A stretch of DNA of 64,000 nucleotides from Escherichia phage fp01. The stretch lies in sequence record NC_048731.1; one strand, given 5' to 3'. Position 1 is the first letter of the stretch; the number at the start of each line of letters is the position of its first letter. Below the pieces are notes generated by a model that saw only the letters and a program-made list of their open reading frames with translations, was not told the origin of the DNA and did not search any database. This document shows, one piece after another, positions 6,597 through 61,169 of the stretch. The position numbers and the translations under genes were made by a program.

Positions 6597-6616
6597 AAGA
6601 CTTCCTTATAGTTAAT

Positions 6617-6706: not shown

Positions 6707-6712
6707 ATTGTT

Positions 6713-6915: not shown

Positions 6916-7000
6916 TGGTGGGGCTAGGGAGACTCGAACTCCCACGCATTTAAGCTACGGAATCTAAGGCCGTATTGTCTACCAGTTCCAGCATAGCCCC
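6916..7000 (-). tRNA. tRNA-Leu (anticodon TAG), type II
   Basis: acceptor GGGGCTA/TAGCCCC, anticodon stem TACGG/CCGTA with loop CTTAGAT, T-arm GGGAG-TTCGAGT-CTCCC, CCA encoded. Confidence 0.65.
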
Positions 7001-7005
7001 GAATT

Positions 7006-7079
7006 TGGTGGAGAAAGAGGGAGTTGAACCCTCGTCTTCTGCGTGCAAAGCAGATGTTCTACCATTAAACTATATCCCC
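7006..7079 (-). tRNA. tRNA-Ala (anticodon TGC)
   Basis: anticodon stem TCTGC/GCAGA with loop TTTGCAC, T-arm GAGGG-TTCAACT-CCCTC, CCA encoded. Confidence 0.65.
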
Positions 7080-7411
7080 AAATTCTTTAGTTTACTAAGG
7101 CTATTAGCTCGGCGTAACTACAGCACCTTCGCTTCGAGCGGAAGGAACTGCGTCATCTCGCAAACCCAATACACTATTCAGTTGCCACTGAATCTAGTGG
7201 ACTAATCTAGAACTTCTCCCGAATCGTAGGGATCGTGCTTTTTGGCAGCCAGTCCTAGGTCGAGCTAATACCTTAGTGAACTAAATTGATGGATACCAGA
7301 CTAATTTTGCTACGACGTTTATCCTGAGGATCTCTTTTTCGGTAGCTCTGCTAGTGTAGACGTCATACACCTGATATCTAGGCAGCTATTTTCGCATCAA
7401 TTTATATAAAT

Positions 7412-7440
7412 ATTATAACAAGAAATTAAGCATCAAGCAA
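7412..7440 (-). promoter_or_regulatory. T5-type early promoter (minus strand) firing into the ORF-free region 7080-7405
   Basis: plus attata 7412-7417, aagcaa 7435-7440, 17-bp spacer; flanking caatttatataaatatt block. Confidence 0.55.
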
Positions 7441-7458
7441 CTGCGTTTTTCTTGAAAT

Positions 7459-7537
7459 TGGTAGATCGCCTGGGACTCGAACCCAGAACCTTCCGATTAA
7501 AAGTCGGATGCTACTAAACCTATTGAGCTAGCGATCT
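7459..7537 (-). tRNA. tRNA-Lys (anticodon TTT)
   Basis: acceptor AGATCGC/GCGATCT, anticodon stem TCCGA/TCGGA with loop CTTTTAA, T-arm CTGGG-TTCGAGT-CCCAG, CCA encoded. Confidence 0.75.
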
Positions 7538-7538
7538 A

Positions 7539-7706
7539 TTAGTAACCATTATATACTTCTTTAATAGAGTGAACTTTCAAGTAAGGGTGATTAGTATTAA
7601 ATTCTACCATTACTTCATCCCAATTTTTACCATAATGAGCAAGTAAGGATTTTGATGTATTCTTACCTAATCGTTTGTCACTTACTACTAATCGAAATAC
7701 TTTCAT
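7539..7706 (-). CDS. hypothetical small protein (55 aa)
   Basis: manual translation MKVFRLVVSDKRLGKNTSKSLLAHYGKNWDEVMVEFNTNHPYLKVHSIKEVYNGY; below ORF-track cutoff. Confidence 0.3.
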   Translation of the reverse strand: MKVFRLVVSDKRLGKNTSKSLLAHYGKNWDEVMVEFNTNHPYLKVHSIKEVYNGY

Positions 7707-7726
7707 TTCGAAATCCTCTATTAAAA

Positions 7727-7804
7727 TGGAAGCGGGTGCAGGGATCGAACCTACCTCTTTCTAGCTTATGAGACTAGCGATCTCTACCAGAGATCTAACC
7801 CGCA
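7727..7804 (-). tRNA. tRNA, anticodon CAT (Met/Ile2 family)
   Basis: D-stem GATC/GATC, anticodon stem CTAGT/GCTAG with loop CTCATAA, T-arm GTAGG-TTCGATC-CCTGC, position 1-72 unpaired, CCA encoded. Confidence 0.65.
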
Positions 7805-7810
7805 ATTGTT

Positions 7811-7886
7811 TGGTCAGTGCGGCAGGACTCGAACCTGCGACCCGAAGCATCCAAGGCTCCCACGCTACCAACTGCGCTACGCACTG
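7811..7886 (-). tRNA. tRNA-Pro (anticodon TGG)
   Basis: acceptor CAGTGCG/CGCACTG, D-arm GCGC-AGTTGGTA-GCGT, anticodon loop CTTGGAT, T-arm GCAGG-TTCGAGT-CCTGC, CCA encoded. Confidence 0.75.
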
Positions 7887-7917
7887 TTAATTTTTGTTAA
7901 CTCACTTTATAAAATAC

Positions 7918-7946
7918 ATTATACAGATAATTAAGCAGAATAGCAA
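7918..7946 (-). promoter_or_regulatory. T5-type early promoter (minus strand) upstream of tRNA-Pro/tRNA-Met
   Basis: plus attata 7918-7923, tagcaa 7941-7946, 17-bp spacer. Confidence 0.5.
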
Positions 7947-8083
7947 ATGAATTTTTAATAAATTTACTTATTGTGTAGGCCACCTGGAGGCTACCAACCC
8001 CACGGCTGACAAAGAAGTTTGCGAGACCTCTCTTAAATGCCAGAATAGACCCGCCAATCTATCGGAACCTACATAATAAGTAA

Positions 8084-8207
8084 ACTTTATAGTGTCATTC
8101 TAGACAGGACTCGAACCTGCTATCACTTGTGCGGACTTACGAGAACCATTCTTTCACTCGAGTCGAACGAGCTTCTGCCCTAGCCAAGCTGGTTTCCCCA
8201 TCAACCA
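8084..8207 (-). ncRNA. elongated tRNA-like gene (about 124 nt): perfect acceptor stem, D-arm and T-arm plus a ~49-nt insertion
   Basis: minus-strand 5' ATTCTAG (plus 8201-8207) pairs perfectly with 3' CTAGAAT (plus 8088-8094); D-arm TGGT-TGATGGGGAA-ACCA; T-arm GCAGG-TTCGAGT-CCTGT; an extra internal hairpin CTCG-TTCGACT-CGAG; no canonical anticodon arm. Confidence 0.35.
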
Positions 8208-8338
8208 CGCTAGAATGTTTGATTGTTTTCAGTGCAAGAGTCCGAGTCTTGGACACGACCGCTTCGCAAGTACATAGGCAGCTTATCATGAGTCAGCACT
8301 TCCGAATTGCTAGCTCCGTGTTCTGCACTGAAATTTTG

Positions 8339-8686
8339 TTAATTTAATAGTAAAGTATTATCTACTTCACCATTAATTGTTCGGCATTCTTCTGGGATTG
8401 CTGGGGTGGCCTTGTATTCCCACCACTCAGAACCATCATATTCACCACGTTCTAACCAAGTTCCATCAGTAAACCATACGTTACCGTAAAGCAATTGTCC
8501 ACCGAAACCAGAATCATATTTAAAGTCTAGATTATTTAGAAAATCTTCAATATCTTTTTCTGTATAACCTACTGGTAATACCCAAACTTCTTTGTCCCCA
8601 TAATAACCGAATTCTATCTTAATACACTTAACTTCAGAATTAGTATTCTTTAGGGCAAGTAACAACTCTTCTTTAGCATTAATCAT
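8339..8686 (-). CDS. hypothetical protein
   Basis: ORF track 115 aa. Confidence 0.5.
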   Translation of the reverse strand: MINAKEELLLALKNTNSEVKCIKIEFGYYGDKEVWVLPVGYTEKDIEDFLNNLDFKYDSGFGGQLLYGNVWFTDGTWLERGEYDGSEWWEYKATPAIPEECRTINGEVDNTLLLN

Positions 8687-8712
8687 AGCGTATTTCTCGT
8701 ACTAGTTTAGTT

Positions 8713-8788
8713 TGGTACACCCACTAGGACTTGAACCTAGAACCCTCCGCTTAAGAGGCGGTAGCTCTAACCATTGAGCTATGGATGT
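8713..8788 (-). tRNA. tRNA-Lys (anticodon CTT)
   Basis: acceptor ACATCCA/TGGGTGT, D-arm GCTC-AATGGTTA-GAGC, anticodon loop CTCTTAA, T-arm CTAGG-TTCAAGT-CCTAG, CCA encoded. Confidence 0.7.
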
Positions 8789-8969
8789 ATATTTGAAGAA
8801 TCTCTCGTAAGAATTTCTTCAAATACCCTCTCCTGTGAAAAAGGGATTTGCTTAATTATTGTGGCTAGGGCGCGGTAAAGCAGCTTTCTAGTCGGAAGCC
8901 CCAGAGCATATCCGTCTAAAGACCATATGTGACCTCCCCTATCTTTACCTACTCTGTACCCTAATTGTT

Positions 8970-9046
8970 TGGCGCGACCGATGGGATTCGAACCCACATT
9001 CTCTCCCGTGACAGGGGAGTACCATTACCAAGCCAGCCCCGGTCGC
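8970..9046 (-). tRNA. tRNA-Asp (anticodon GTC)
   Basis: acceptor GCGACCG/CGGTCGC, anticodon stem CTCCC/GGGAG with loop CTGTCAC, T-arm GTGGG-TTCGAAT-CCCAT, CCA encoded. Confidence 0.75.
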
Positions 9047-9055
9047 ATAATTCAT

Positions 9056-9241
9056 TTACTCAGCTTTGAGTTTTTCAATAGCTGCATTAAGTTCCTTAAG
9101 AAACTCTTTTCGTACATTAAGACGATTAAGACTTACTAGTATATCATGTTTAAGTTCTTCGATGTATTTCTTCTCCACTTCAATATTGTTGATAGTGCTA
9201 TCACGATGAACTTCTAGCTGCGCAATTACATTCTTGGACAT
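9056..9241 (-). CDS. hypothetical small coiled-coil protein
   Basis: ORF track 61 aa. Confidence 0.4.
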   Translation of the reverse strand: MSKNVIAQLEVHRDSTINNIEVEKKYIEELKHDILVSLNRLNVRKEFLKELNAAIEKLKAE

Positions 9242-9343
9242 GCTTGTTTCCTCAGTTATTAATGAAAATGGTATCTGTGGCTGAATTCGATATCAGCAAT
9301 GATAGCTGGTTGGCTACCGGTTTACTTAACTCTACACAGAATT

Positions 9344-9426
9344 TGGCGGGCCGTGTAGGATTCGAACCTACGTTGTCTTTCGACATGGATTAACAGTCCA
9401 CCGCCAAACCGCTTGGCTAACGACCC
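9344..9426 (-). tRNA. tRNA with anticodon GTT (Asn by loop position) but an extended variable arm
   Basis: acceptor GGGTCGT/ACGGCCC, anticodon stem GTGGA/TCCAT with loop CTGTTAA, variable GTC-GAAA-GAC, T-arm GTAGG-TTCGAAT-CCTAC, CCA encoded. Confidence 0.55.
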
Positions 9427-9578
9427 TAAATTTATATTGCTGACTAGGATTTTCACCTAGACGGAGTTAGCACCGTAGCGTGTAGCGGCATACCTCTCCA
9501 AACCGTGCCTCATCTTTCAATTACGGAGACAGTGTTCCTACGCGTGCCTGAATTGATTTAACAATTCTTTCAGCAAAT

Positions 9579-9654
9579 TGGACGACCGCATGAGATTTAA
9601 ACTCACATAAAAAGGATTTGCAATCCTTCGCCTAAGCCATTCAGCCAACGGTCG
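9579..9654 (-). tRNA. tRNA-Cys (anticodon GCA)
   Basis: acceptor CGACCGT/GCGGTCG, anticodon stem AAGGA/TCCTT with loop TTGCAAA, T-arm GTGAG-TTTAAAT-CTCAT, CCA encoded. Confidence 0.7.
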
Positions 9655-9703
9655 ATTTATCTTGTTCTGTCATGTTGCTCCCCACAGTTCAATTTATGTA
9701 ATT

Positions 9704-9732
9704 ATTATACAGAACTTTTGGAAACTAAGCAA
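9704..9732 (-). promoter_or_regulatory. T5-type early promoter (minus strand)
   Basis: plus attata 9704-9709, aagcaa 9727-9732, 17-bp spacer; overlaps the 3' end of ORF 9725-10012. Confidence 0.45.
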
Positions 9733-10012
9733 CTACATTTTTTAAGAATTTGATGCCTTTCTTTTTCTTCTTATATTTCCACGTTAATGGATTCTGTCGA
9801 TTGTGAACGCTTGAGATCTTCGTCTCGTCAAAGTTCTTCAATATCATGTAATCACAAGATAATTGTTCTAGTGGAATGTGATCACCATCAAAAGCATATA
9901 CATAAGGCTGTTGACTAGCACGATAATGATAGACTTTGTTAATTCTACGTTTCAGCGACTTATCCGCGCAGTAAATAAAGAAGTTTTCAGGATGCATCAG
10001 CAGCTCCTTCAA
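9725..10012 (-). CDS. hypothetical protein
   Basis: ORF track 95 aa. Confidence 0.45.
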   Translation of the reverse strand: MKELLMHPENFFIYCADKSLKRRINKVYHYRASQQPYVYAFDGDHIPLEQLSCDYMILKNFDETKISSVHNRQNPLTWKYKKKKKGIKFLKNVVA

Positions 10013-10014
10013 TT

Positions 10015-10089
10015 TGGTGCACCCTGTTCGTATCGAACGAACCTCTCAAGCTCTTCAGGCAAGCGCTAATCCATCTCAGCTAAAGGTGC
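10015..10089 (-). tRNA. tRNA-like gene with atypical anticodon arm (identity unresolved; possible pseudo-tRNA)
   Basis: acceptor GCACCTT/AGGGTGC, T-arm GTTCG-TTCGATA-CGAAC and CCA are good; no clean 5-bp anticodon stem with a 7-nt loop could be drawn. Confidence 0.4.
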
Positions 10090-10095
10090 AAATTT

Positions 10096-10178
10096 TGGCA
10101 AACCTACTAGGACTCGAACCTAGACCGTACGGTTTTGGAGACCGACATGCTGTCCAGTAACACTCTAGGAATGCAGGA
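10096..10178 (-). tRNA. tRNA-like gene, candidate anticodon CCA (Trp), weak acceptor stem
   Basis: T-arm CTAGG-TTCGAGT-CCTAG, anticodon stem CGGT/ACCG with loop CTCCAAA, CCA encoded; acceptor stem has two T-T mismatches. Confidence 0.4.
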
Positions 10179-10180
10179 AT

Positions 10181-10257
10181 TGGCGTCCTGTGCGGGGATC
10201 GAACCCGCAAATCCTACCTTGAAAGGGTAGTGACTTTACCAGTTTGTCTAACAGGAC
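10181..10257 (-). tRNA. tRNA-Glu (anticodon TTC)
   Basis: acceptor GTCCTGT/ACAGGAC, anticodon stem CTACC/GGTAG with loop CTTTCAA, T-arm GCGGG-TTCGATC-CCCGC, CCA encoded. Confidence 0.75.
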
Positions 10258-10263
10258 TTAAAT

Positions 10264-10350
10264 TGGTGGGGAAAGATGGAGTCGAACCACCCGAGTCGCA
10301 ATGACAACTGATTTACAGTCAGCTCTGCTACCACTTACAGAATATTCCCC
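10264..10350 (-). tRNA. tRNA-Tyr (anticodon GTA), type II
   Basis: anticodon stem GCTGA/TCAGT with loop CTGTAAA, long variable arm, T-arm GGTGG-TTCGACT-CCATC, CCA encoded. Confidence 0.7.
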
Positions 10351-10482
10351 CATATTTAGAAGTATTCAAAAAATTCTAATTTAAACACTTTTAAATATGT
10401 TTCCAAATTAGATAACTATTATACCAAGTTTTAAGGCACTGAGCAAGTCAAATTTTAAAGAACTTGCTCAGTGCTGTATTAG

Positions 10483-10758
10483 TTAGTCGAACTTAGGAGT
10501 GACAGTTAAGGAGAATGGAAGTTCGAAAACTTCTTCACCCTCATCACTAACAGTAATTACACGACCTTTAAGTTCAGACATTGAAATATCAATATCAGCT
10601 TTTGCATCCGGAGCCATGCCAGCTTCAACACATTTAGCTTTAATTTCCGGCAGAAGTTCTACATCGTAGAAATAAAGCCATTCAATCTCACCTTCCCAGC
10701 CTTCCCAGGATTTACAGATTGCACTTTCAATACCAGCTGCTATAACACGATTTTGCAT
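10483..10758 (-). CDS. hypothetical protein
   Basis: ORF track 91 aa. Confidence 0.5.
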   Translation of the reverse strand: MQNRVIAAGIESAICKSWEGWEGEIEWLYFYDVELLPEIKAKCVEAGMAPDAKADIDISMSELKGRVITVSDEGEEVFELPFSLTVTPKFD

Positions 10759-10848
10759 TCGTTAACTCCTTCATCAATTTATATAACTATTATATCAGAA
10801 ATTTAAAGCAAAAGGCAAGTACATTTTTAAAAATTCTATTTGGAGGAG

Positions 10849-11055
10849 CTAAACTCCAGATTCTTCAGCCAAGTCTAGACTAATAAGAGATATAGCCATA
10901 ATTGCCGCTCCATGCTCTTTTTCTCCAGTCTCTTTAGCTAGAGTTATAATGTCAAGAAATTGCTTATGAAAATCTGCAACCTCTTGAGTTATACCTGCCT
11001 CAGCAATCATGCCTTTAAGCATGAAACGTTGTGCTGTAATTTCAGGATTAGCCAT
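10849..11055 (-). CDS. hypothetical protein
   Basis: ORF track 68 aa; ATG overlaps the stop of the upstream small ORF (TAATG-style coupling). Confidence 0.45.
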   Translation of the reverse strand: MANPEITAQRFMLKGMIAEAGITQEVADFHKQFLDIITLAKETGEKEHGAAIMAISLISLDLAEESGV

Positions 11056-11215
11056 GTTGTTTCTCCAGTTTCATCTTTAATAGTCTACAAATAAAATCAA
11101 TGTCTTCATCCGTGCCTAGATCTCTGTCTTCAAGAGTTGCCTTGAAGTTTTTAGTCAATTCCATGAGGATAACTTCCCTAGAACGACGTGTTGGCGGAGG
11201 TGGATGTCTATACAT
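11048..11215 (-). CDS. hypothetical small protein (55 aa), Pro-rich N-terminus
   Basis: manual translation MYRHPPPPTRRSREVILMELTKNFKATLEDRDLGTDEDIDFICRLLKMKLEKQHG; below ORF-track cutoff. Confidence 0.3.
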   Translation of the reverse strand: MYRHPPPPTRRSREVILMELTKNFKATLEDRDLGTDEDIDFICRLLKMKLEKQHG

Positions 11216-11230
11216 CTTATTTCCTTAATT

Positions 11231-11307
11231 TGGTAGGGGTGGTGGGATTCGAACCCACAAAACCTGAATTTTAAGTCCAGTACCTATGCCAATTCGATTA
11301 CACCCCC
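11231..11307 (-). tRNA. tRNA with anticodon TAA (Leu by loop position) on a short-variable-loop (type I) body
   Basis: acceptor GGGGGTG/CACCCCT, anticodon stem CTGGA/TTCAG with loop CTTAAAA, 5-nt variable loop, T-arm GTGGG-TTCGAAT-CCCAC, CCA encoded. Confidence 0.55.
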
Positions 11308-11408
11308 GTGTAATCAGTTTATTAGTTGATACATATTATAGCCTAGTGAAAACCCTACTACTAGTCCCACAAACCAACCAATATAATAATCTTTTAGTTT
11401 CACAGGTA

Positions 11409-11594
11409 TTATCCTCTTTCAATATCTAGAGAAATACCACAGTTAGGATTAATACCTGTACCCTTGCAATTTGGGCAAACCCATATATTGCAAAAAGTAT
11501 CTCCTGCTTCTGCATCAGAACTTTCACCAATTCCCCTACACTCAGGGCAGGCACACTTTTCTAGCTCTTGCTTGAGTTCTTGAAACTTGGACAT
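11409..11594 (-). CDS. small zinc-ribbon protein
   Basis: ORF track 61 aa; CACPEC...CPNC Cys pairs. Confidence 0.45.
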   Translation of the reverse strand: MSKFQELKQELEKCACPECRGIGESSDAEAGDTFCNIWVCPNCKGTGINPNCGISLDIERG

Positions 11595-11603
11595 ATAGTC
11601 TCC

Positions 11604-11792
11604 TTAGTCAATTACTTTTGAGGCTTCAAGGTAGTCGATATAGTGTACGTTTTCTACCGTAATCATATAATCTGCCACTTTATCCATAGCTTGGGCTTCA
11701 GAGGTAGCTCTGGCTAGCCTATATCCTTTTTTATATTCATCCGGGTATTCTCTATCTTGAATAAACACAACATAAACTATATACAGATCCAT
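11604..11792 (-). CDS. hypothetical protein
   Basis: ORF track 62 aa. Confidence 0.45.
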   Translation of the reverse strand: MDLYIVYVVFIQDREYPDEYKKGYRLARATSEAQAMDKVADYMITVENVHYIDYLEASKVID

Positions 11793-11810
11793 TTGTGACC
11801 TCTATTTAAT

Positions 11811-11888
11811 TGGTGGCTCCCCGAGGATTCGAACCTACGTACCTTCCGGTTATGAGCCGGGTGCTCATACCATATGAGCTTGAGAACC
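11811..11888 (-). tRNA. tRNA, anticodon CAT (Met family)
   Basis: acceptor GGTTCTC/GGGAGCC, anticodon stem CCGG/CCGG with loop CTCATAA, T-loop TTCGAAT, CCA encoded; third CAT tRNA in the array. Confidence 0.6.
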
Positions 11889-11894
11889 AAAATC

Positions 11895-11983
11895 TGGCGG
11901 AAGAAGTGGGAATCGAACCCACAAGGCTATATTTCAAACCGACAGATTAGCAATCTGCTGCAATACCGTTATGCTATTCTTCC
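11895..11983 (-). tRNA. tRNA-Ser (anticodon GCT), type II
   Basis: acceptor GGAAGAA/TTCTTCC, anticodon stem GCAGA/TCTGT with loop TTGCTAA, long variable arm, T-arm GTGGG-TTCGATT-CCCAC, CCA encoded. Confidence 0.7.
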
Positions 11984-12004
11984 GAGTTTATAAGATATAT
12001 TATA

Positions 12005-12574
12005 TTAGAAATTTAGCTTCATAGCAAGAAAATTTTTCAAGTTTTCGGTAGACATCTCATCCACATCTACGGGAGAAACAAAGCCGTTTAATTTTCTAGC
12101 AAATTTTTCACCCGCAGGATCATTATCCCCGACAGCTACCAATTTAAAGGGTAGTAATTTCAGTTGCTTTAATAACGCTTTTCCTGGAGAAGAACCCAAC
12201 ATTGCTAGGGCTGGATAACCAGCATTATGTAATGCAACTGCCTTAAATACAGATTCAGCAATCAATACTACTTTTTCATCTCCATTGAGAGTTTCTAGTC
12301 CCCATACACACTGTGTAGTGGAGTAGGTAAAATATTTAGCCTCAAAAGGGCACTTACCATGCCCTTTTGGAGCAGAAGGATTATACGTCTGATAGCCCCG
12401 CAACATCCCAGAGAAGTCATACAATGGGACTGTTAGCCATCCTTCCGGACTTAACCAGCAATGATATTTATCTGTATCAAATCCTCTAGATAAGAGGTGC
12501 TGTGTTAGCTCATCAACATTCATATCTGGTTCCTCTCTCAAATTTATAGATATATTATACAGAGAATTTAGCAT
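12005..12574 (-). CDS. hypothetical protein with Toprim-like acidic motif (LVAVGDNDPAGEKFA)
   Basis: ORF track 189 aa; DxD-containing motif resembles Toprim domains; promoter 12554-12582 immediately upstream. Confidence 0.5.
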   Translation of the reverse strand: MLNSLYNISINLREEPDMNVDELTQHLLSRGFDTDKYHCWLSPEGWLTVPLYDFSGMLRGYQTYNPSAPKGHGKCPFEAKYFTYSTTQCVWGLETLNGDEKVVLIAESVFKAVALHNAGYPALAMLGSSPGKALLKQLKLLPFKLVAVGDNDPAGEKFARKLNGFVSPVDVDEMSTENLKNFLAMKLNF

Positions 12575-12582
12575 TCAAGCAA
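12554..12582 (-). promoter_or_regulatory. T5-type early promoter (minus strand)
   Basis: plus attata 12554-12559, aagcaa 12577-12582, 17-bp spacer. Confidence 0.5.
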
Positions 12583-12698
12583 TCAAATTTTTTAACTTTT
12601 TATAGGAAAATCATAGGGCACTTAAGGGTAGCAGATAAGTGGTGAGGACCAAAATTTGTGCCCCCACTAAAAATCCGGGGGCAATTTTTAAAGACCCC

Positions 12699-12727
12699 TT
12701 GACATTTTCGCTGGGGTAGTGTAAAGT
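12699..12727 (+). promoter_or_regulatory. sigma70-like promoter (TTGACA-17-TAAAGT) for the plus-strand low-complexity cassette
   Basis: TTGACA 12699-12704, TAAAGT 12722-12727; diverges from promoter 12554-12582. Confidence 0.5.
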
Positions 12728-12789
12728 ATATGTTATGGATGAGTGATCAAAGAGACACACATTTTCTATATACTAGGAGGTGTCAAAAA

Positions 12790-13773
12790 ATGACAGAAGA
12801 AGTAGCTAAGAGTCCTGAGACCGTCGCTAGCGTTGCAGCAGAACTGCACCGTCACGAGGAATCAGATAAGAAAAAGTGGGAGAAGGTCAGAGCCTACGAA
12901 GAAAAACATCGTGAACACGATGATGAAGAAGATGATGATGAACATTGTCATAAATATGGAAAACATAAAATGCAAGAACCAGTAAACGTATTCACTAGTG
13001 GCTTCCCTGGCCTACTGGGTGGTTACCCAGCAAACGCAAGTGCTTTCGGTGGTGAAGGTATGGGACTATTCGGAGCTATCCTAATCGGTGCTCTATTAAC
13101 AGGCGGATTCGGTGGTTTCGGTGGATTCGGTGGACGTGGTGTAGTTGGTGAAGGTACCGCAGTTGATGCAGTACTTCAGAACCAAGATACCGCTAGTATT
13201 CTAGCAGCTATTAACACTACTCGTACAGAAGCTAACCAGGGTACTGGGGCTGTTTTAAGCGCAGTTAACAATGGTTTTAGCCAGACATCCCAAAACCAGA
13301 GCCGTGATACTCAGTCTGTACTAACTACGATCTATGGTACAGGTGCTAATCTGTCTAATCAGATCTGCCAGGAAACTCGCAACGTTATTCAGGGTCAGTT
13401 CGATCTTTCTCGCCAGATTGATCAATCTTTCGCAGCTAACCAGATAGCTCGTGCACAAGATAAGTTTGATTCTGCACAGATCGCTTTCCAGCAGACTTTA
13501 CAAACTAATAACCAGTTTGCCGCTGTTCAGGCTCAGATGTGTGCTAACCAGAACTCTCTGGAACGTCAGATCGCTGAATGTTGCTGTGAACTTCAGACTG
13601 CGATCGCTGGTGTAACTACTGCACGTATCCAGGATGAGTTAGACGCATGTCGCCTACGTGAAGCAATCGCTGCGGGTAGTGGTGCTAACGGTCAGGTAAT
13701 TAATCAAATCGCTTTAAGTCTTGGTGCTATCACTCAGACTCTGGCTGGTCTGCAGGCTAAACTGCCGGCTTAA
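12790..13773 (+). CDS. low-complexity protein: acidic His-rich N-terminus, Gly-zipper hydrophobic segment, Q/N/A-rich C-terminal half
   Basis: ORF track 12730..13773; start placed at ATG 12790 with AGGAGG SD upstream; GLFGAILIGALLTGGFGGFGGFGGRG segment; CCC in ...IAECCCELQ. Confidence 0.6.
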   Translation: MTEEVAKSPETVASVAAELHRHEESDKKKWEKVRAYEEKHREHDDEEDDDEHCHKYGKHKMQEPVNVFTSGFPGLLGGYPANASAFGGEGMGLFGAILIGALLTGGFGGFGGFGGRGVVGEGTAVDAVLQNQDTASILAAINTTRTEANQGTGAVLSAVNNGFSQTSQNQSRDTQSVLTTIYGTGANLSNQICQETRNVIQGQFDLSRQIDQSFAANQIARAQDKFDSAQIAFQQTLQTNNQFAAVQAQMCANQNSLERQIAECCCELQTAIAGVTTARIQDELDACRLREAIAAGSGANGQVINQIALSLGAITQTLAGLQAKLPA

Positions 13774-13794
13774 TATTAAGGGGAGGAGCCCATT

Positions 13795-14211
13795 ATGAGT
13801 AAATATGGTTTTGTAAATAACGGACTTAATCAAAGTATGGGCTCCCAGCAGCCCATTCCGGGTCTGGATAATCCCTACTTACAACAGTTGCAACAGCGTT
13901 TAGCAGAAGCGCAACAGATGCAGCAACAACTCCAGCAAAATCCTGGAAGTGTGAGTCCTATGCAAATGATGCAGCAAATGAGCGGGCAGTCGCAAATGCC
14001 TCAACAAATGCAGCAACAGATGCCACAGCAGCAAGTTCAGCAACAAACCCAACAACCGCAGGTTTCTGCGGAAGGACAGGCAGTACTAGCCCTTTTCGAA
14101 GACTTCGCAAAGACAGAGGATGGGAAGCAGCTTGTATCACTTATGGGTAAGTTTAATAGCTTCTGCCAAAGCCAAATTGCAAAAGCTCAAAATAGTGGTA
14201 ATAACTCCTAA
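13795..14211 (+). CDS. Gln-rich low-complexity protein
   Basis: ORF track 138 aa; SD GGGGAGGAG upstream; QQLQQRLAEAQQMQQQLQQ... repeats. Confidence 0.6.
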   Translation: MSKYGFVNNGLNQSMGSQQPIPGLDNPYLQQLQQRLAEAQQMQQQLQQNPGSVSPMQMMQQMSGQSQMPQQMQQQMPQQQVQQQTQQPQVSAEGQAVLALFEDFAKTEDGKQLVSLMGKFNSFCQSQIAKAQNSGNNS

Positions 14212-14220
14212 GGAGGAATT

Positions 14221-14415
14221 ATGTGTTGCAGAAAATCTGTTTCGTGCTGCCCAATGCCTGTAGCACGTTGTTGCTCTCCAGCAATGTTTACGCAAATACC
14301 GGCGTTCAATCCGTTTGCCTTTAAGCCTACTCTTATCCTGCCCCCTAGAGTAGATTTTCAGTCAAGATTGGCCTCCCGTATGGGTGGTTGCTGTAACAAG
14401 AGTATATGGTTCTAA
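14221..14415 (+). CDS. small Cys-rich protein (CC pairs)
   Basis: ORF track 64 aa; SD AAGGAGGA upstream; MCCRKSVSCCP...RCCSP...GGCCNKS. Confidence 0.5.
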   Translation: MCCRKSVSCCPMPVARCCSPAMFTQIPAFNPFAFKPTLILPPRVDFQSRLASRMGGCCNKSIWF

Positions 14416-14430
14416 AGAACCAAACAATAA

Positions 14431-14466
14431 AGCCCCTAGTCGAAAGACTTAGGGGCTTTTTCTTTT
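14431..14466 (+). terminator. rho-independent terminator (plus strand)
   Basis: hairpin AGCCCCTAGTC-GAAA-GACTTAGGGGCT followed by TTTTTCTTTTT. Confidence 0.6.
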
Positions 14467-14479
14467 TCCTTAAATACAG

Positions 14480-14510
14480 AAAAGCCCGCGCTCTCGGAGG
14501 AAACGCGGGC
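14480..14510 (-). terminator. rho-independent terminator (minus strand) after the SPFH gene
   Basis: hairpin GCCCGCGCTCTCGGAGGAAACGCGGGC with A-run 14480-14483 on plus = U-run on the minus transcript. Confidence 0.55.
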
Positions 14511-14535
14511 TTGGTTCGAAGATTACGTGTAACTA

Positions 14536-15483
14536 TTACTTGTTACGCATATCCATAATCATTTGACCATCATAGCCAGTGCCAACTACAGTCTGAGGTA
14601 CACCACCTTGATATTTCTGAGCACGAATCATCTCAACTTCCAGTTGTTTCCAACGAATCATCTCAGGAGTAATGGTACGTTGCAGTGCGGCGTTAGCTTC
14701 AGCTTCTTTCTTAGCTGCGTACAGTTTAGCATCTGCGTCACGTTCATTAGCGATAGCTTGGTTGTTGCGAGCTTCACGATCAGCTTCTGCTTGTTTAACT
14801 TTCTGCTGAGCTTCTTGTTCAACACGAGCAAGCTCAGCTTTCGCAGCATTAACTTGCTCTTCACGAACTTTGGTATTCTGTACCTGTTCCATGATTACCG
14901 GTGGCAAAGTAATATCCTGAAGGAACACCTGCTTAACTGTGTAACCATATGGGCGCGCATACTCTTCAACTTCCTGTTGAATTGCGGTTTGCAATTGAGC
15001 CTGAATTTTAGCATCAAATAAATCTTGTGCTTTAGGTACAGACTTACCAAACTCACGAATAGTAGACAGTAATTTTTCAGTTACATATTTGTCTAATGCT
15101 TGATCCTGAGTACCTGCATTAATACGGTTAATCGGTGCCTTAGAACCATCAAACTGCAACATAACAGTCAGGTCAACAGTGGATTTAAACTTATCCTGAC
15201 TAGGGACCTGAAGTTTATCTAATTTTAGAGCAATATCTTTAGTACTAAAAGTATCGAAAGAAGCAAAAGGATTTACAATATGAAAGCCGGGTAATACTGG
15301 GCTAGGGTCAACTTTACCCAGGAAAGTCTGGGTTTTAACAGTACCGTCTTGAACAACAGTGTAAGAGTTAAGAGCCAGAACTAAACCTACCAAACCAACT
15401 GCAGCCCCAATACCCCAACGTTTGATATTACGCATTAATTTTTGCTCATAAGTCAGTTCTTTAGTGTTTTTAGTAGCAAACAT
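14536..15483 (-). CDS. SPFH/band-7 (stomatin/prohibitin/HflK-C-like) membrane protein
   Basis: 315 aa; N-terminal TM helix (WGIGAAVGLVGLVLAL), SPFH-like core and C-terminal Ala/Glu/Gln-rich coiled coil (VREEQVNAAKAELARVEQEAQQKVKQAEADREARNNQAIANERDADAKLYAAKKEAEANAALQR). Confidence 0.8.
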   Translation of the reverse strand: MFATKNTKELTYEQKLMRNIKRWGIGAAVGLVGLVLALNSYTVVQDGTVKTQTFLGKVDPSPVLPGFHIVNPFASFDTFSTKDIALKLDKLQVPSQDKFKSTVDLTVMLQFDGSKAPINRINAGTQDQALDKYVTEKLLSTIREFGKSVPKAQDLFDAKIQAQLQTAIQQEVEEYARPYGYTVKQVFLQDITLPPVIMEQVQNTKVREEQVNAAKAELARVEQEAQQKVKQAEADREARNNQAIANERDADAKLYAAKKEAEANAALQRTITPEMIRWKQLEVEMIRAQKYQGGVPQTVVGTGYDGQMIMDMRNK

Positions 15484-15517
15484 ATATTTCCTTTGTTTTA
15501 GTTACAGTTAATAAAAT

Positions 15518-15592
15518 TGGCCGAGGTGACAGGATTCGAACCTGCATAAAGGAATTTAGAAGACTCCTGCCTCTCCCTTAGACTACACCCCG
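15518..15592 (-). tRNA. tRNA-Arg (anticodon TCT)
   Basis: acceptor CGGGGTG/CACCTCG, anticodon stem GGAGT/ATTCC with loop CTTCTAA, T-arm GCAGG-TTCGAAT-CCTGT, CCA encoded. Confidence 0.65.
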
Positions 15593-20541: not shown

Positions 20542-21057
20542 TTACTTCGCTTTACGCTTGCGAGCTGGTTTAGCAGATTTACGAGCAGAATCACCCGTGA
20601 ACTTAATGCCTACACCGTAACACAGAGCACGAACATTATCTTTAATATACTCTACGCCAAAGATATTTGGCTTAACAGAACCAAACTGTCCACGAGTATC
20701 ACGCAGTACATCTGCTGTTGGTTTACGCTTCTGGTTAACTGCCTTCTCATAGTCTTTCATAGACATACCATTACGAGGGAACAGTTCAGCCCCAGCGTTG
20801 AAGCTCAGGGAAACTGGGACAGATTTGTGGCCGTAATTTTCTACATACATAACCATTTTGTAGGATTTACGGGTGGCATTTTTAGCTTTAGGCTTCTGAC
20901 GAATCGGAGCCGGACTATTCAGTGCTTGCGCAGCCTGAGCATCGGTAGGATGCTTACGCAGGTGGCGTTCCAGACGAGCTTTGCGATTAGCCTCGGTCTG
21001 TGGGAAAGTTTTAACTGCCGGAGCTGCTTGAGTTTTTGCGTTTTTCTGCTTAGCCAT
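20542..21057 (-). CDS. hypothetical basic (Lys/Arg-rich) protein
   Basis: ORF track 171 aa; basic termini. Confidence 0.5.
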   Translation of the reverse strand: MAKQKNAKTQAAPAVKTFPQTEANRKARLERHLRKHPTDAQAAQALNSPAPIRQKPKAKNATRKSYKMVMYVENYGHKSVPVSLSFNAGAELFPRNGMSMKDYEKAVNQKRKPTADVLRDTRGQFGSVKPNIFGVEYIKDNVRALCYGVGIKFTGDSARKSAKPARKRKAK

Positions 21058-39398: not shown

Positions 39399-39809
39399 AT
39401 GACTACTCCAACTCAGTGGACTGATGAACTGTTCGAAAAAATGTCTTCCGAATACGTTGCTCGTATGGAGCAATTCCCAGAGGATGAACGTCCGGGTGTT
39501 AGCATGGAAATTGTTAGCGAAATTGCCCAAGAAAATGGTGTAACTCCGAACGGTTTTCGTATGAAGCTGACTAAAGCAGGTTTGTATATCAAGAAAGCTG
39601 CTGGCTCTGCTTCTAAATCTAGCGCATCTACAGGAGAAAAAGCTTCTGGTGGTTCTCGTACTTCCAAAGCCCAAGCTCATGCCGACCTTCGTTCAGCATT
39701 CTCTGATGCTGGCCTAGCACCAGATTTTCTGGATGATGCAATTATCGACAAACTGACCGGTAAAGCGGCTGCTCATCTGGCAGAAGCAATCCGAGCTATC
39801 ACTAAGTAA
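39399..39809 (+). CDS. hypothetical protein
   Basis: ORF track 136 aa; AAGGAAATATAAAAT ATG context. Confidence 0.5.
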   Translation: MTTPTQWTDELFEKMSSEYVARMEQFPEDERPGVSMEIVSEIAQENGVTPNGFRMKLTKAGLYIKKAAGSASKSSASTGEKASGGSRTSKAQAHADLRSAFSDAGLAPDFLDDAIIDKLTGKAAAHLAEAIRAITK

Positions 39810-42158: not shown

Positions 42159-42301
42159 TACATAACCCTTTGCTACCCATCCACCATATCGGAATTATAA
42201 AGTGGTTATTGACATTTTCGCCGCTTAGGTATATACTATTATCATTCAGTTGAGGGATAGAAAGTTATGGCGAGGGTAAGCAAAGTTAGTTAAAATTGTA
42301 G

Positions 42302-42330
42302 TTGCTAAATGCTTAAATACTTGCTATAAT
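42302..42330 (+). promoter_or_regulatory. T5-type early promoter (plus strand) in the ligase A/B spacer
   Basis: TTGCTA 42302-42307, TATAAT 42325-42330; downstream ATTTATATAAATTGATAAGGAAG block. Confidence 0.55.
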
Positions 42331-42357: not shown

Positions 42358-43140
42358 TTGATGAAAATCGAAATTCCAACACAATGTCCCTCTTGTGGTT
42401 CTAAGCTAGATCTTGTCAACGGACAATTATTCTGTCGGAATAAGTCCAACTGTCCAGCGCAATCAAGTAAGTTAATTGAGAACTTCTGTACAAAAATGAA
42501 GTTAAAGGGCTTTGGCCCAAAAACTATTGAGAAGCTGGAGCTGACGAAGATTTCAGAACTATTTTACCTAACCGAAGAAGATTTGGTTAGAGCCGTGGGT
42601 AGCAAGGTTGCCGCTAAGTTAATTAGCGAATTAAATACTAAAGTTCGCGGAGACATTGACTTTGGTTCAGTTCTCGGTTCTTTAGGAATCCCTCTAATAG
42701 GAGAGGTTGCAGCAAAGAAATTATCCCAAAATTGCACTAGCTTCCACGATGTGAAGGCTGACGGCAAGGCTGGAGAAAATTATAAAGCCTGGCTAAATTC
42801 CCCACAAGGCAGGGATGTTATCGAACTACCGTGGAAATTTTCAACCGGTATTAAGGGCACTAAAGCTAATATCATCATTACAGATGAATTAGTTGCCCAG
42901 CCAAATGGAATCGCGGTATGTATTACCGGATCTTTGCAAGATTTTGCAAATAGAACGGATGCAACAAACTATTTAGAAGGTCTAGGATATACGGTTAAGA
43001 AATCCGTTACCAAAGACGTCAAATACCTGATCTGTGAGGATGAATCAAAACGTTCTTCCTCATCTTATAAGAAAGCCGAAACGAATGGGATAGAAATCCT
43101 GTCGATTAAAGAACTATTGGAGAAAAATAATAATGTCTAA
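42358..43140 (+). CDS. NAD-dependent DNA ligase, Zn-finger/HhH/BRCT subunit (ligase part B)
   Basis: 260 aa; CPSCGSKLDLVNGQLFCRNKSNCPAQ zinc finger; C-terminal BRCT-like region. Confidence 0.8.
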   Translation: MMKIEIPTQCPSCGSKLDLVNGQLFCRNKSNCPAQSSKLIENFCTKMKLKGFGPKTIEKLELTKISELFYLTEEDLVRAVGSKVAAKLISELNTKVRGDIDFGSVLGSLGIPLIGEVAAKKLSQNCTSFHDVKADGKAGENYKAWLNSPQGRDVIELPWKFSTGIKGTKANIIITDELVAQPNGIAVCITGSLQDFANRTDATNYLEGLGYTVKKSVTKDVKYLICEDESKRSSSSYKKAETNGIEILSIKELLEKNNNV

Positions 43141-43900
43141 ACTGAACTGGAACGTAGAAGGTGTAACCGAGTCTCTGAAAGCAAAAGCCACTGCTCTGGG
43201 TGTTTCTGTAATCTCTCAAGAACAAGTAGCTGCTATCGCTGCTGAACTGGCTGCTGAAACTGGCAAAGATGTTACTGCCCGCTCTGTTGGCTCTAAACTG
43301 CGTAAAGAAGGTTTTGAAGTACAGAAAGCTAACGAAGTACAGAAATCCCCGTGGACTCCTGAGCAGGAAGCTGAACTGGTTGATTTCCTGAACGCTCATG
43401 CTGGTCAGTATACCTATGCTGAAATCGCTGCTGCTGTAGCTGGTGGCCAGTTCGGTGCTAAACAGGTACAGGGTAAGATTCTGAGCCTGGAAATGACCGC
43501 TTCTGTTAAGCCAACCGAAAAAGCTGCTGCTGTTCGTTCCTTCACTCCGGATGAAGAAACTGATTTTGTTAATCAGGTTGTTGCTGGTGCTACTATTGAA
43601 GCTATCGCTGCTCACTTCGGTCGTAATATCAAGCAGATCCGTGGTAAAGCTCTGAGCCTGCTTCGTGAAGGTCGTATCGCGGCTATGCCGGTACAGGAAA
43701 CTTCAAGTGCTAAAACTCGTGAAGATCTGTTAGAAGGTCTGGATCTGGTTAACATGACTGTTGCTGAGATCGCTGAGAAAACTGGTAAATCTGAGCGCGG
43801 TGTTAAATCTATGCTGTCTCGTCGTGGTCTGGTTGCTAAGGACTATGATGGTGCCGCTAAGCGTGCTAAACTGGATGCAAAAGCTGCGGCTGTTGAATAA
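43133..43900 (+). CDS. abundant-type repeat protein (four ~55-aa HTH-like repeats), E. coli-optimal codon usage
   Basis: 255 aa; repeated ...EIA...G......K.LSL... modules; strong CTG/GCT/CGT/GGT codon preference unlike neighbouring genes. Confidence 0.6.
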   Translation: MSKLNWNVEGVTESLKAKATALGVSVISQEQVAAIAAELAAETGKDVTARSVGSKLRKEGFEVQKANEVQKSPWTPEQEAELVDFLNAHAGQYTYAEIAAAVAGGQFGAKQVQGKILSLEMTASVKPTEKAAAVRSFTPDEETDFVNQVVAGATIEAIAAHFGRNIKQIRGKALSLLREGRIAAMPVQETSSAKTREDLLEGLDLVNMTVAEIAEKTGKSERGVKSMLSRRGLVAKDYDGAAKRAKLDAKAAAVE

Positions 43901-43917: not shown

Positions 43918-43950
43918 AAGGGGAGGGGGCTATGCTCCTTCCCCTTTTTG
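43918..43950 (+). terminator. terminator-like hairpin plus T-run after the repeat protein gene
   Basis: AAGGGGAGGGGG...CTCCTTCCCC hairpin followed by TTTTTG. Confidence 0.45.
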
Positions 43951-51031: not shown

Positions 51032-51316
51032 ATGCTTACAGAGCCTGATGCTCACCAACTATTGGTCGGTTCCTCATTCATTTTGAATGAATCAACTATT
51101 GTTGATAATCCAAATAAATTGTCTAATAGACAACTGGCAGAATATCTAGGAATTTTAAGTCTACGAAATTATGCCGAATACAAGTTTACAAACGATCCTA
51201 GTTTGGACATGCAATATGTTCCAGTATGGATACCACGTTTAGTAATCGACACTAACCCACTAATCGCAATTAACAAATCGAAATTAATCTTTAAAGAGGA
51301 AATAAAATATGGCTAA
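51032..51316 (+). CDS. hypothetical protein
   Basis: ORF track 94 aa. Confidence 0.4.
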   Translation: MLTEPDAHQLLVGSSFILNESTIVDNPNKLSNRQLAEYLGILSLRNYAEYKFTNDPSLDMQYVPVWIPRLVIDTNPLIAINKSKLIFKEEIKYG

Positions 51317-52082
51317 GTCTTGGGGCGAAACTACTGGCGGTTCTAACGATAAAATCGAATTCCTGAAGTTCAACAACGGTATCACTCGTGTTCGTATCGT
51401 TTCTGGTGTTCTTCCACGTTATGTCTATTGGCTGACTAATAAAGAGGGTAACGTAGCTCCTTTTGAATGTCTCCGTTTTAACCGTGACAAAGAGAGCTTT
51501 GTTCGTGGTAAAGCTGATCCAGTTCATGAGATGGGCTTCTTCGAGAAAGAGCTGGATAAAGATGGTAATCGTGTTCCGCTGAAACCGAAGAAAAACTATA
51601 TCGCTTTTGTTATTGACCGTTCTGATAACAAACTGAAAGTAATGGAAGTCAAGGCTACTATTCTGAAAGGCATCCAGTCTATCATGAAGCAGCTGAGCCT
51701 GGCAACTCCGTTTGATATTGATATTTCTATCGAGAAAAAAGGTAAAGGTTTCGATACTGAGTATGATGTACAGCAGATTGCTGCTATGCAGTTCCAGATT
51801 AAGCTGCAAGATCCTAACAGTGCGGAATCTAAGCAATATGCTGCGGATGTCGATCTGATCGGTGAAGCTATGTGTGATGAAGATGGCGACATCATTAAGT
51901 TCGAAAAAGTTCCTTCTCTGGAACAAACCTATCCGGTTCCTACCTATGAAGAGCAGAAAGAAGCAATTCAAGCCTTCATGGAGGGTCGTGAGAATAAAGA
52001 TGATGATGCCAAATCTGGTAATAGCAATGCAGGCTCCCAGAAAGGTATTGACTCAGAAGCTGCAAGCGATCTGGACGACTAA
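51309..52082 (+). CDS. putative ssDNA-binding protein with acidic C-terminal tail
   Basis: 257 aa; C-terminus ...AASDLDD; optimal codon usage; sits among replication genes. Confidence 0.5.
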   Translation: MAKSWGETTGGSNDKIEFLKFNNGITRVRIVSGVLPRYVYWLTNKEGNVAPFECLRFNRDKESFVRGKADPVHEMGFFEKELDKDGNRVPLKPKKNYIAFVIDRSDNKLKVMEVKATILKGIQSIMKQLSLATPFDIDISIEKKGKGFDTEYDVQQIAAMQFQIKLQDPNSAESKQYAADVDLIGEAMCDEDGDIIKFEKVPSLEQTYPVPTYEEQKEAIQAFMEGRENKDDDAKSGNSNAGSQKGIDSEAASDLDD

Positions 52083-59265: not shown

Positions 59266-61169
59266 TTACCGTAAGCCATTAATTTGATCATTATTTAAAG
59301 CCCTATACCATACTCGGAAATTCTTAATATGATATACAAATTTAGAAGGGGTAGGAGATGGTGATGCACCTAACCTAGACGGAATACCTGTCAAACTCAC
59401 GGGAGTACTAGTAGATTTAGCAGTTTTACCATTAAAGAAATTACTAATCTCATTCCCTGTTATTTTTTGAGCATAGGTCATAGGAGGTAGACTTTCTATA
59501 TCTGGAATAGCTAAGGTTGGCCCTGTACTAGATCTATATGTTCTTATAGTGGCATTATCAGCGCTATCACAGCGGCAGATAATGTCATACTTAGAACCTC
59601 TTACTTGCATAACTTCTACATAACTAGTATAAGGTCGTACTTTACAATTAAATTCAAAAGATACTGTGCGCTCAAAGTAGTCCGCCAGGGTTCTATAGCC
59701 GGCATTATCTGGTATACACCACCATTCATCTGCTGTTCTAGTAGTGGTGGTATCAGTGCTATTACGGATGTAAGAAGTTGGAGCTATGCCTTCCTCAACC
59801 TGTATACCCCAAATGTAGAAACCAGAAACACCATCCCCCTGGTAGACAGTAGTATTGGTATTTTTAGCCATCTGGAGTCTAAATATAGTGCTTCGACTTT
59901 CAGTGGCTGCAAAAGAAACCCAAATTCTATATATACCTCCAGTTAATCTCTCATACCCCCCTCTAATATTACTAGCAGAACCACTTGTAGCAACAGTTTC
60001 ATTTTTAATATCAAAAAACATACCAACAGTTGTACCGGAAGCTACACGTAGATATACTAAACGGTTAGCGGTATCATCTTTAACATAAGCAGAATAGCAA
60101 TAAAAAGTATCAGCAGTCAAAGATATCCATTTATCGTTGCAGTAATGCTCGCCGTCATTGGTATTCTCGGTAAACTTAGTCATCAACATTTCGCCAGTCG
60201 GGCACGCCGAAGCATTAGGAGTTGTAATAACTAGACTACCTCCAGTAATTGCTTCTGAATTAGTATATAAATTAGTGCACTGAGACTCCATTAATAAACC
60301 TTGCTTTTCAAATCTAGGTTCATTAATATCTGCAAAACACATTTTACCACTTTTATCTATATAACTGGCGGTAGTTGAGCGAGTAAAATTTGCAGATTTT
60401 GTTGGCAATTCCAGAGTTACATCATTAATTGTTGCTAAATCGTAGGGGGCCATACCAGATAATAATCTCATATCATCAGTTAAAGGTACCCAAACATCCG
60501 GATAAGGGACAGGTTCATACATAATAATACTAGCAGCAGAAGCAGCGGCGGCAGCTTCAGAAGCTTTAGCATTAATTTCAGAAGCTTTAGCGTTAGTCTC
60601 TGAAGCTTTAGCATTAGTCTCAGAAGNNNNNNNNNNNNNNNNNNNNNNNNNNNNNNNNNNNNNNNNNTTTTACTTGCTAATGCATTAGTTTCGCTAGTAG
60701 CAGCATTAGTTTCCGAGGTTTTAGCTTTGGTTTCACTAGATTTTGCATTAGTTTCTGATGCTTTTGCATTAGTCTCGGATGTTTTAGCCTTAGTTTCACT
60801 AGCTTTCGCATTAGTCTCAGATACTTTAGCTGCTGCGGCTGATGCTGCAGATCTATCCGCTGATGCAGCAGATTGAGTAGCAGATGTAGCGGACTGAGTG
60901 GCAGAGGCTTCAGAAGCTCCAGCAGAAATAGCAGCTTCCTGTTCAGAATCCTTAGCATTAAGTTCTGAAGTCTTAGCAGCTATCTCAGAAGCTTTTGCAG
61001 CTGCAGCAGATTTAGCCGTAGCCTCAATAGAGGATACTAATTCACTTGCAGTAATAGAGCTAATAGAATTACCTAGAGTTACAGTATATCTAGGAAATTT
61101 ACTAGCAGTAGCTTTAGTATCATCAATATTTAATATCTGTTGTACAATAATCTTAGTAGTTACTGCCAT
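59266..61169 (-). CDS. tail-fibre protein with N-terminal S-E-T-N-A-K-A heptad repeats, interrupted by an assembly gap
   Basis: ORF track splits it (59266..60522 and 60480..61169); the frame of the downstream ORF stays open upstream through SETNAKASETNAKASEINAKASEAAAAAS to the N run, matching the repeat in the upstream ORF. Confidence 0.55.
60627..60667. other. assembly gap (41 N) inside a repetitive coding region
   Basis: run of n characters flanked by near-identical 21-nt repeats (aagctttagcattagtctcag...). Confidence 0.95.

Follow-up and report, generated by a model that had tools for sequence, protein, structure and literature searches.

A strongly codon-biased early gene of Escherichia phage fp01 encodes the D5 DNA-binding protein of T5-like phages, with four predicted helix-turn-helix modules

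Introduction

In the 64,000-nucleotide stretch of Escherichia phage fp01 DNA considered here (NC_048731.1, called the window throughout), one gene on the plus strand (43133-43900) is written in codons that differ from those of its neighbours, and its product appears to repeat a helix-turn-helix (HTH) unit. The locus raises the question of what protein the phage makes from this gene, and whether the unusual codons reflect a need for large amounts of it or an origin elsewhere. An earlier reading, made from the letters alone (the sequence-only reading), had left both options open, and suggested either a very highly expressed DNA-binding or nucleoid-associated protein or a recent acquisition. The analysis presented here points to the first option, and places the gene in a family long known from phage T5.

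Identification of the gene as an ortholog of T5 D5

The window is DNA of a T5-like phage (Tequintavirus). Its segment 42300-44000 matches 513 phage records, nearly all of them T5-like phages of Salmonella, Escherichia and Klebsiella, with Salmonella phage vB_SalS_ABTNLsp4 as the best match (98.8% nucleotide identity over the full length). In the relatives, the gene is named 'D5 protein', 'DNA-binding protein D5' or 'D5-like transcriptional regulator'. The encoded protein of 255 residues (27.1 kDa, isoelectric point (pI) 6.8, 17% alanine) has the same length as the D5 protein of T5 (T5.118, YP_006946.1) and is identical to it in 253 of the 255 residues. The two substitutions, given from the window to the T5 residue, are S25D and V254A. 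The PHROG 323 profile ('transcriptional regulator, D5-like') matches residues 1-253 with E = 1.3e-71. There is no dedicated Pfam family for D5, and no NCBIfam model for the D5 family was found.

According to the T5 RefSeq record (NC_005859), D5 binds DNA, is needed in DNA replication and in late transcription, and also takes part in the shutoff of (early) expression. The open reading frames (ORFs) around the gene encode a split nicotinamide adenine dinucleotide (NAD)-dependent ligase, a DnaB-like helicase and a primase, and the order is the same in T5. Sequence comparison identifies the gene as the ortholog of T5 D5, which belongs to the early genes of the replication module, or in other words as the same gene in a sister phage. 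As such, it is not new, since the D5 gene has been known since the 1970s.

Codon usage of D5

The codon choice of D5 is extreme. CTG accounts for 17 of 19 leucine codons (89%), GCT for 36 of 43 alanine codons (84%), CGT for 10 of 12 arginine codons (83%), GGT for 16 of 19 glycine codons (84%) and GAA for 20 of 25 glutamate codons (80%). The same codons have shares of 17%, 46%, 50%, 53% and 70%, respectively, in the remaining 63 ORFs. The bias towards these five codons, unlike that of the neighbours, had been noticed in the sequence-only reading, which had proposed the codon adaptation index (CAI) against the host as a check, and the observation was accurate. With a CAI of 0.725, D5 ranks first among the 64 ORFs of the window (mean of the others ~0.28, next best 0.552, z = 4.8); the weights are the E. 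coli values of Sharp and Li, and absolute CAI values are approximate. Wright's effective number of codons (Nc), which is independent of the host and needs no reference set, leads to the same result. Among the 52 ORFs of at least 100 residues, D5 included, its value of 30.5 ranks first (mean 44.7, standard deviation 5.6).

The bias is also visible in the base composition. The local GC content is 0.46-0.49 inside D5, compared to ~0.39 in the flanks. At third codon positions, the GC content (GC3) of D5 is 0.33, as in other phage genes and far below the GC3 that is typical of E. coli genes. The preference leans to T-ending codons and CTG, which are the 'optimal' codons of highly expressed genes.

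The runners-up in CAI are the genes for the single-strand DNA-binding protein SSB (51309-52082, plus strand, phrog_1607, CAI 0.55) and D3 (39399-39809, plus strand, annotated as 'DNA binding protein', phrog_1725, CAI 0.53). We take D5, SSB and D3 to be proteins that are needed in amounts proportional to DNA. The fourth place among the 64 ORFs belongs to a gene on the minus strand (20542-21057, CAI 0.51) for a 171-residue protein of phrog_4516, which may be another abundantly made early protein.

The window also contains 23 phage tRNA genes, clustered at 3428-15592 on the minus strand. Many of these tRNAs have anticodons with U34, matching the A-ending codons TTA, CTA, ACA, TCA, GCA, CCA, CAA and AGA that are common in ordinary phage genes. 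When the share of such codons was computed over the leucine, threonine, serine, alanine, proline, glutamine and arginine codons, it was 5.7% for D5, against a mean of 32%, and the lowest of the 52 ORFs. Of all window genes, D5 relies least on the A-ending codons that are served by phage tRNAs.

Four predicted HTH modules

Models and profile comparisons predict that D5 is a tandem array of four three-helix HTH modules of ~60 residues, of the Myb, homeodomain or sigma region 4 type, followed by a C-terminal helix. The module boundaries lie at residues 1-68, 69-130, 131-190 and 191-239. The sequence-only reading had described four HTH-like repeats of ~55 residues. The number and the nature of the repeats were upheld by profile-profile tests and by the AlphaFold model, and the length needed correction, as the period is nearer 60 residues (57-68) than 55.

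Repeats were tested by hhalign comparisons between sub-alignments of 43 homologs (50-80% identity), cut at residues 68/69, 130/131 and 190/191, with column-shuffled alignments as controls. The second and third repeats are most alike (probability 96% over 56 columns; score 42.9, compared to 9.8 +/- 1.9 for the shuffled controls, z = 17). They are followed by the pairs R1-R3 (z = 7.5), R3-R4 (z = 7.4), R1-R2 (z = 5.7) and R1-R4 (z = 5.0). The observed scores were reached by at most 1 of 60 shuffles, and this only for R1-R2. A self-comparison of D5 by BLASTP at permissive settings detected no internal repeats, and significance came only from the profile-profile comparison.

The AlphaFold2 model of D5 has a mean predicted local distance difference test score (pLDDT) of 93.8 and a predicted template modelling score (pTM) of 0.54. 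It contains three-helix units at residues 11-58, 76-118 and 139-178, and a fourth unit at residues 205-231. The predicted first module (43133-43336, residues 1-68) has helices at residues 11-22, 29-43 and 49-58, with the recognition helix motif R50-S-V-G-S-K-L-R57. The helices of the second (43337-43522, residues 69-130) are placed at 76-88, 95-101 and 109-118, with the motif Q111-V-Q-G-K-I-L-S-L, and those of the third (43523-43702, residues 131-190) at 139-150, 155-162 and 166-178, with the motif I169-R-G-K-A-L-S-L. The fourth (43703-43849, residues 191-239) has a turn at 205-207 and helices at 210-217 and 221-231, and resembles the HTH of sigma-70 region 4, with the motif E221-R-G-V-K-S-M-L-S-R-R-G. 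Outside the repeats, model and composition indicate an alanine- and lysine-rich helix at the C-terminus (43850-43897, residues 240-254), and it is our guess that it contributes to self-association.

The modules share sequence features. Modules 1-3 open with a conserved aromatic residue (W6, W74 and F137) and an acidic stretch, according to the pattern W/F-[ST]-x-[DE]-x-E. The third helices carry the related motifs SVGSKLRK, VQGKILSL, IRGKALSL and RGVKSMLSRRG, in which the glycine, lysine and arginine hardly vary, if at all, across the family. Short echoes at the DNA level, 171-189 nucleotides apart in the gene, reflect these related motifs being written in identical codons.

The Pfam family Sigma70_r4_2 matches module 4 (residues 204-230) with 28.8 bits, above the gathering cut-off of 25.7 bits, and also matches 37 of the 43 homologs. 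In modules 1-3, there are sub-threshold Pfam matches to HTH_33, Myb_DNA-binding (residues 71-100) and HTH_23 (residues 151-184), and the pattern recurs in homologs. A profile search of PDB sequences gave only a marginal match, of the engrailed homeodomain to module 1 (E = 0.002), and found no deposited structure of D5. A Foldseek search of the PDB with the whole model returned nothing at E <= 0.001. The best match, the four-winged-helix C-terminus of SelB (E = 0.017), is an analogy of layout only. D5 has no solved structural relative.

A likely role of D5 as an abundant coat of duplex DNA

We consider it likely that D5 is an abundant protein of four HTH modules that coats double-stranded DNA and acts in replication and in the switch to late expression, as an ortholog of T5 D5. 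The high expression and the DNA-binding or nucleoid-like character proposed in the sequence-only reading are supported by the near-identity with T5 D5 and its annotation, by the stack of HTH modules, the promoters (see below) and the codon bias, and by proteomic data on a relative. In Yersinia phage phiR2-01, D5 is among the proteins with the highest spectral counts in a virion preparation (PMC8624392). According to the title of a study by McCorquodale from 1979, cited in PMC12630848, D5 binds DNA and affects replication and the expression of late genes. More recently, purified D5 was described as a 26-kDa monomer with an HTH fold that is toxic when over-expressed (bioRxiv 10.64898/2026.07.11.737809).

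In the mechanism that we propose, D5 would be made in stoichiometric rather than catalytic amounts, and would coat the phage duplex with little sequence specificity, each monomer laying up to four recognition helices along the DNA. The coat would remodel the template so as to let replication proceed and to shift the host sigma-70 RNA polymerase from early promoters to late ones.

The main alternative is that D5 is a sequence-specific transcription factor for late genes, or a sigma-like subunit, which uses the HTH of module 4 to recognise late promoters and to recruit or redirect the host RNA polymerase, without coating the DNA. It could draw on the match of Sigma70_r4_2 above the gathering cut-off in D5 and in most homologs, on the several phage records that name the gene 'late gene transcription factor' or 'D5-like transcriptional regulator', and on the T5 record, which has D5 required for late transcription. 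However, the region 4-like match comprises 27 residues of an ordinary HTH, and neither a sigma region 2 nor any other region for binding to core polymerase was detected. Even at E <= 10, Pfam gave no match to Sigma70_r2, and the NCBIfam model sigma70-ECF reached 12.6 bits, far below its cut-off of 42.9 bits. With regions 2 and 3 and the determinants for core binding absent, and only the core of a region 4-like HTH present, we reject the idea that D5 is a sigma factor. A specific late factor also fits poorly with the transcription of T5, in which the host sigma-70 holoenzyme serves all classes of genes, early and late alike, from strong sigma-70 promoters, by a switch mechanism described as unresolved (PMC7472727). 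The extreme codon bias, common to D5, SSB and D3, suits a stoichiometric protein better than a regulator, and the T5 record requires D5 for replication as well. On balance, a role of D5 as a specific late factor seems unlikely to us.

The reading of D5 as an abundant, four-module coat of duplex DNA faces difficulties of its own, which concern its amount, its contacts with DNA and its modular structure. We infer the high abundance of D5 from codon bias, promoters and the single proteomic study of a related phage; the literature searches found no direct measurement of how much D5 infected cells contain. The protein is near-neutral (pI 6.8, 34 lysine and arginine residues against 34 aspartate and glutamate residues), an unusual property for a protein that coats DNA without specificity. 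Four is the predicted upper limit for the number of modules that would contact DNA. Cooperative binding with a preference for double-stranded DNA comes from the biochemistry of 1979-1983: Rice et al. in 1979 and Fujimura and Roop in 1983 reportedly observed it for D5, together with an inhibition of the T5 polymerase on saturated duplex in vitro. As to the modules, the profile similarity between R2 and R4 was not significant in the hhalign comparison (z = 2.6), and the first helix of module 4 is poorly formed in the model, appearing as only a short turn in the DSSP string. The model is confident for single modules, and at the pTM given above it leaves their mutual arrangement undefined. Finally, a plaque-forming escape phage with a stop codon at W74 (see below) sits uneasily with a strictly essential D5.

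The escape phage comes from work on a bacterial defence system. D5 binds the multicopy single-stranded DNA (msDNA) of retron-Kva2 and triggers the retron, and a phage that escapes retron-Kva2 carried the D5 changes G53D, W74*, V149I and G232D (bioRxiv 10.64898/2026.07.11.737809). In our map, G53 (43289-43291) and G232 (43826-43828) are nearly invariant glycines in the predicted recognition helices of modules 1 and 4. The hits on these two residues, by G53D and G232D, suggest that both end modules matter for msDNA sensing. The phage DNA-binding trigger described in the DRT4 paper was also considered as a possible D5 and was rejected, as this trigger is T5 ORF55.

Family-wide conservation and host-tracking codon bias

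By TBLASTN, D5 was detected in 901 phage records, from phages of Escherichia, Salmonella, Klebsiella, Proteus, Vibrio, Aeromonas and Pectobacterium. The genomes of the best 40 of the 901 records are roughly 100-128 kb long, apart from one record of 44 kb. The gene lies between ligB and the DnaB-like (D6) helicase gene, followed by the primase and polymerase genes where these are annotated, in the window, T5, Klebsiella phage Sugarland, Proteus phage PM135 and Vibrio phages D25 and Chester. In Aeromonas phage TS3, where the annotation of the region is patchy and the helicase is unannotated, D5 follows the ligase genes and the polymerase gene is downstream. Among the 120 homologs listed, the named ones are all from phages or unassigned metagenomes, except for two partial entries labelled Enterococcus faecalis. 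These two partial proteins (P0020 and P0039) are 99% identical to D5 and are encoded on contigs of 669 and 531 bp. Most likely, they are not Enterococcus genes and reflect phage contamination of the assemblies.

The codon bias is conserved along with the gene, and its direction changes with the host. By Nc, D5 takes first or second place in T5, Sugarland, PM135, D25, Chester and TS3. The lowest values of the early region belong to D5, SSB and usually D3 in the relatives that infect Klebsiella and Vibrio. For leucine, D5 and SSB of the window and of the Klebsiella phage favour CTG, those of the Proteus phage TTA and those of the two Vibrio phages CTA; D5 of the Aeromonas phage favours CTG. The favoured leucine codons are presumably the optimal codons of the respective hosts, and we read the switch as a retuning to the major tRNAs of each host.

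These data bear on the other option raised in the sequence-only reading, namely that the host-like codons of D5 result from recent horizontal acquisition from an enterobacterial genome and not from selection for expression. The locally raised GC content and the codon choice unlike that of the neighbouring genes are what such a transfer could leave behind. However, the position beside ligB is kept in Demerecviridae of Escherichia, Klebsiella, Proteus, Vibrio and Aeromonas, and the wide occurrence in phage records is matched by homologs that, where named, belong to phages or metagenomes, the two Enterococcus labels aside. Moreover, the low GC3 is that of a phage gene, with a bias towards T-ending codons and CTG, and the change of the orthologs to TTA or CTA in Proteus and Vibrio phages is expected for selection in place. 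As gene order and bias are conserved across the family and the GC3 is phage-like, we reject a recent acquisition, to which we assign hardly any probability.

A further consequence of the codon bias is a long ORF on the opposite strand (43106-43615, minus strand, 169 residues, GTG start), which the sequence-only reading had already dismissed as spurious, correctly as it turns out. The ORF is in exact codon register with the sense frame of D5, so that stops can arise only from sense TTA, CTA and TCA codons, and it is open because these codons are avoided in D5, where they account for only 2 of 255 codons (TCA-191 and TTA-200). That this frame of 169 codons with a GTG start is a real overlapping gene is effectively excluded and has a negligible probability in our judgement, given its dependence on the avoidance of three sense codons, the 19-22 stops in the equivalent frame of the orthologs from Proteus and Vibrio phages, whose preferred leucine codons are TTA or CTA, and its low-complexity translation rich in serine and phenylalanine.

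Transcription unit and neighbouring genes

Upstream of D5 lies ligB (42358-43140, plus strand), which is identified by the ORF list, the near-identical phages and the T5 record as the gene for subunit B of the NAD-dependent DNA ligase. The T5 record starts it one codon later than the TTG in the window (780 instead of 783 nucleotides). Its stop overlaps the D5 start by 8 nucleotides. A Shine-Dalgarno-like GGAG element (43119-43122, plus strand), read from the sequence, is a candidate ribosome binding site 10 nucleotides upstream of the D5 ATG.

A promoter scan points to two sigma-70 promoters in tandem on the plus strand ahead of ligB. The upstream member of the pair (42209-42237, TTGACA-17-TATACT) has 11 of 12 matches and corresponds to T5 P-K28b. 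The second (42302-42330, TTGCTA-17-TATAAT) has an extended -10 TG and corresponds to T5 P-K28a. The window segment 42160-42360 is ~99% identical, with one mismatch, to the T5 stretch annotated with both promoters, which presumably belong to a group of T5 promoters of great strength that had been characterised in the 1980s. Downstream, 18 nucleotides after the D5 stop, a GC-rich hairpin with a stem of 13 pairs, 8 of them G-C, and a T run form a predicted intrinsic terminator (43918-43950, plus strand). In Klebsiella phage Sugarland, a terminator is annotated at the equivalent place after D5. The arrangement of these signals indicates that ligB and D5 are transcribed together from P-K28b and P-K28a, in a unit that ends at the hairpin.

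According to the T5 record, the gene for the helicase, an ortholog of T5 D6, starts at ATG 43932, inside the D5 terminator hairpin. The Klebsiella, Proteus and Vibrio orthologs of the helicase begin with 'M(Y/I)NVQAVVLK', which aligns with TTG 43989 (AAGGAG 7 nucleotides upstream) or with ATG 43983. Because of this alignment, the annotated start is probably 17-19 codons too far upstream. Elsewhere in the window, a run of 41 N marks masked or unresolved bases (60627-60667).

Comparison with known systems

The closest counterpart of the gene is D5 of T5 itself, with the same position between ligB and the D6 helicase gene, the same upstream promoters and a terminator directly after the gene; the difference lies in the two substitutions. 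In other virulent phages, p6 of phi29 and TF1 of SPO1 are likewise abundant early proteins that bind double-stranded DNA and serve replication and a change of the transcription programme, and D5 would resemble them functionally. There is no homology, and the fold is different. TF1 is a dimer of the HU type, and the small p6 assembles into multimeric nucleoprotein complexes, whereas D5 is predicted to be a monomeric chain of four HTH modules. The Pfam scan of D5 gave no match to HU, IHF, H-NS or Fis, and the possibility that D5 is a homolog of any of these bacterial nucleoid proteins was rejected on this ground.

In terms of fold, the D5 modules, each a three-helix HTH of ~50 residues, are comparable to the tandem repeats of the Myb/SANT and homeodomain-like type (R1-R3 of c-Myb, the DNA-binding repeats of Timeless, the bipartite domain of Tc3) and to the DNA-binding domain of GcrA. 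In the models, D5 has the tandem three-helix HTH fold of the Myb/SANT proteins, but the similarity is limited. The match to Pfam Myb_DNA-binding scores 17.6 bits, below the cut-off of 24.4 bits, and is found with E < 0.01 in 9 of the 43 homologs. No match spans more than one D5 module. A Myb repeat is typified by three regularly spaced tryptophans, which are absent from D5, where each module has a single conserved aromatic residue (W6, W74 and F137). The presence of four modules in a single bacteriophage protein also sets D5 apart in its arrangement.

Implications

The main value of the work is that it confirms an inference from sequence alone, which had led from extreme codon bias and HTH repeats to an abundant protein that binds DNA. 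To this, the analysis adds three modest points that are not stated in the literature examined, namely the map of four modules for a protein without solved relatives, the trio of D5, SSB and D3 with a codon bias apparently retuned to the host across the Demerecviridae, and the finding that D5 is the gene least dependent on phage tRNAs. According to a recent report, D5 triggers a type IX retron, and the domain map is therefore useful for finding the module that is sensed by the retron.

A more speculative idea, which we regard as rather improbable, is that D5 serves as phage 'chromatin': the monomer with its four Myb-like HTH modules would be made in large amounts, would coat the replicating DNA of the Demerecviridae and might keep host enzymes off it. 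Such a shield is compatible with the signals of D5 abundance, the apparent lack of a specific partner family and the presence of D5 throughout the family. If the idea is correct, the D5 coat would address how Tequintavirus and Epseptimavirus phages avoid methylation by Dam, Dcm and restriction-modification systems in a non-specific way, a still unexplained observation for which a protective DNA-binding protein has been proposed before (PMC10644984).

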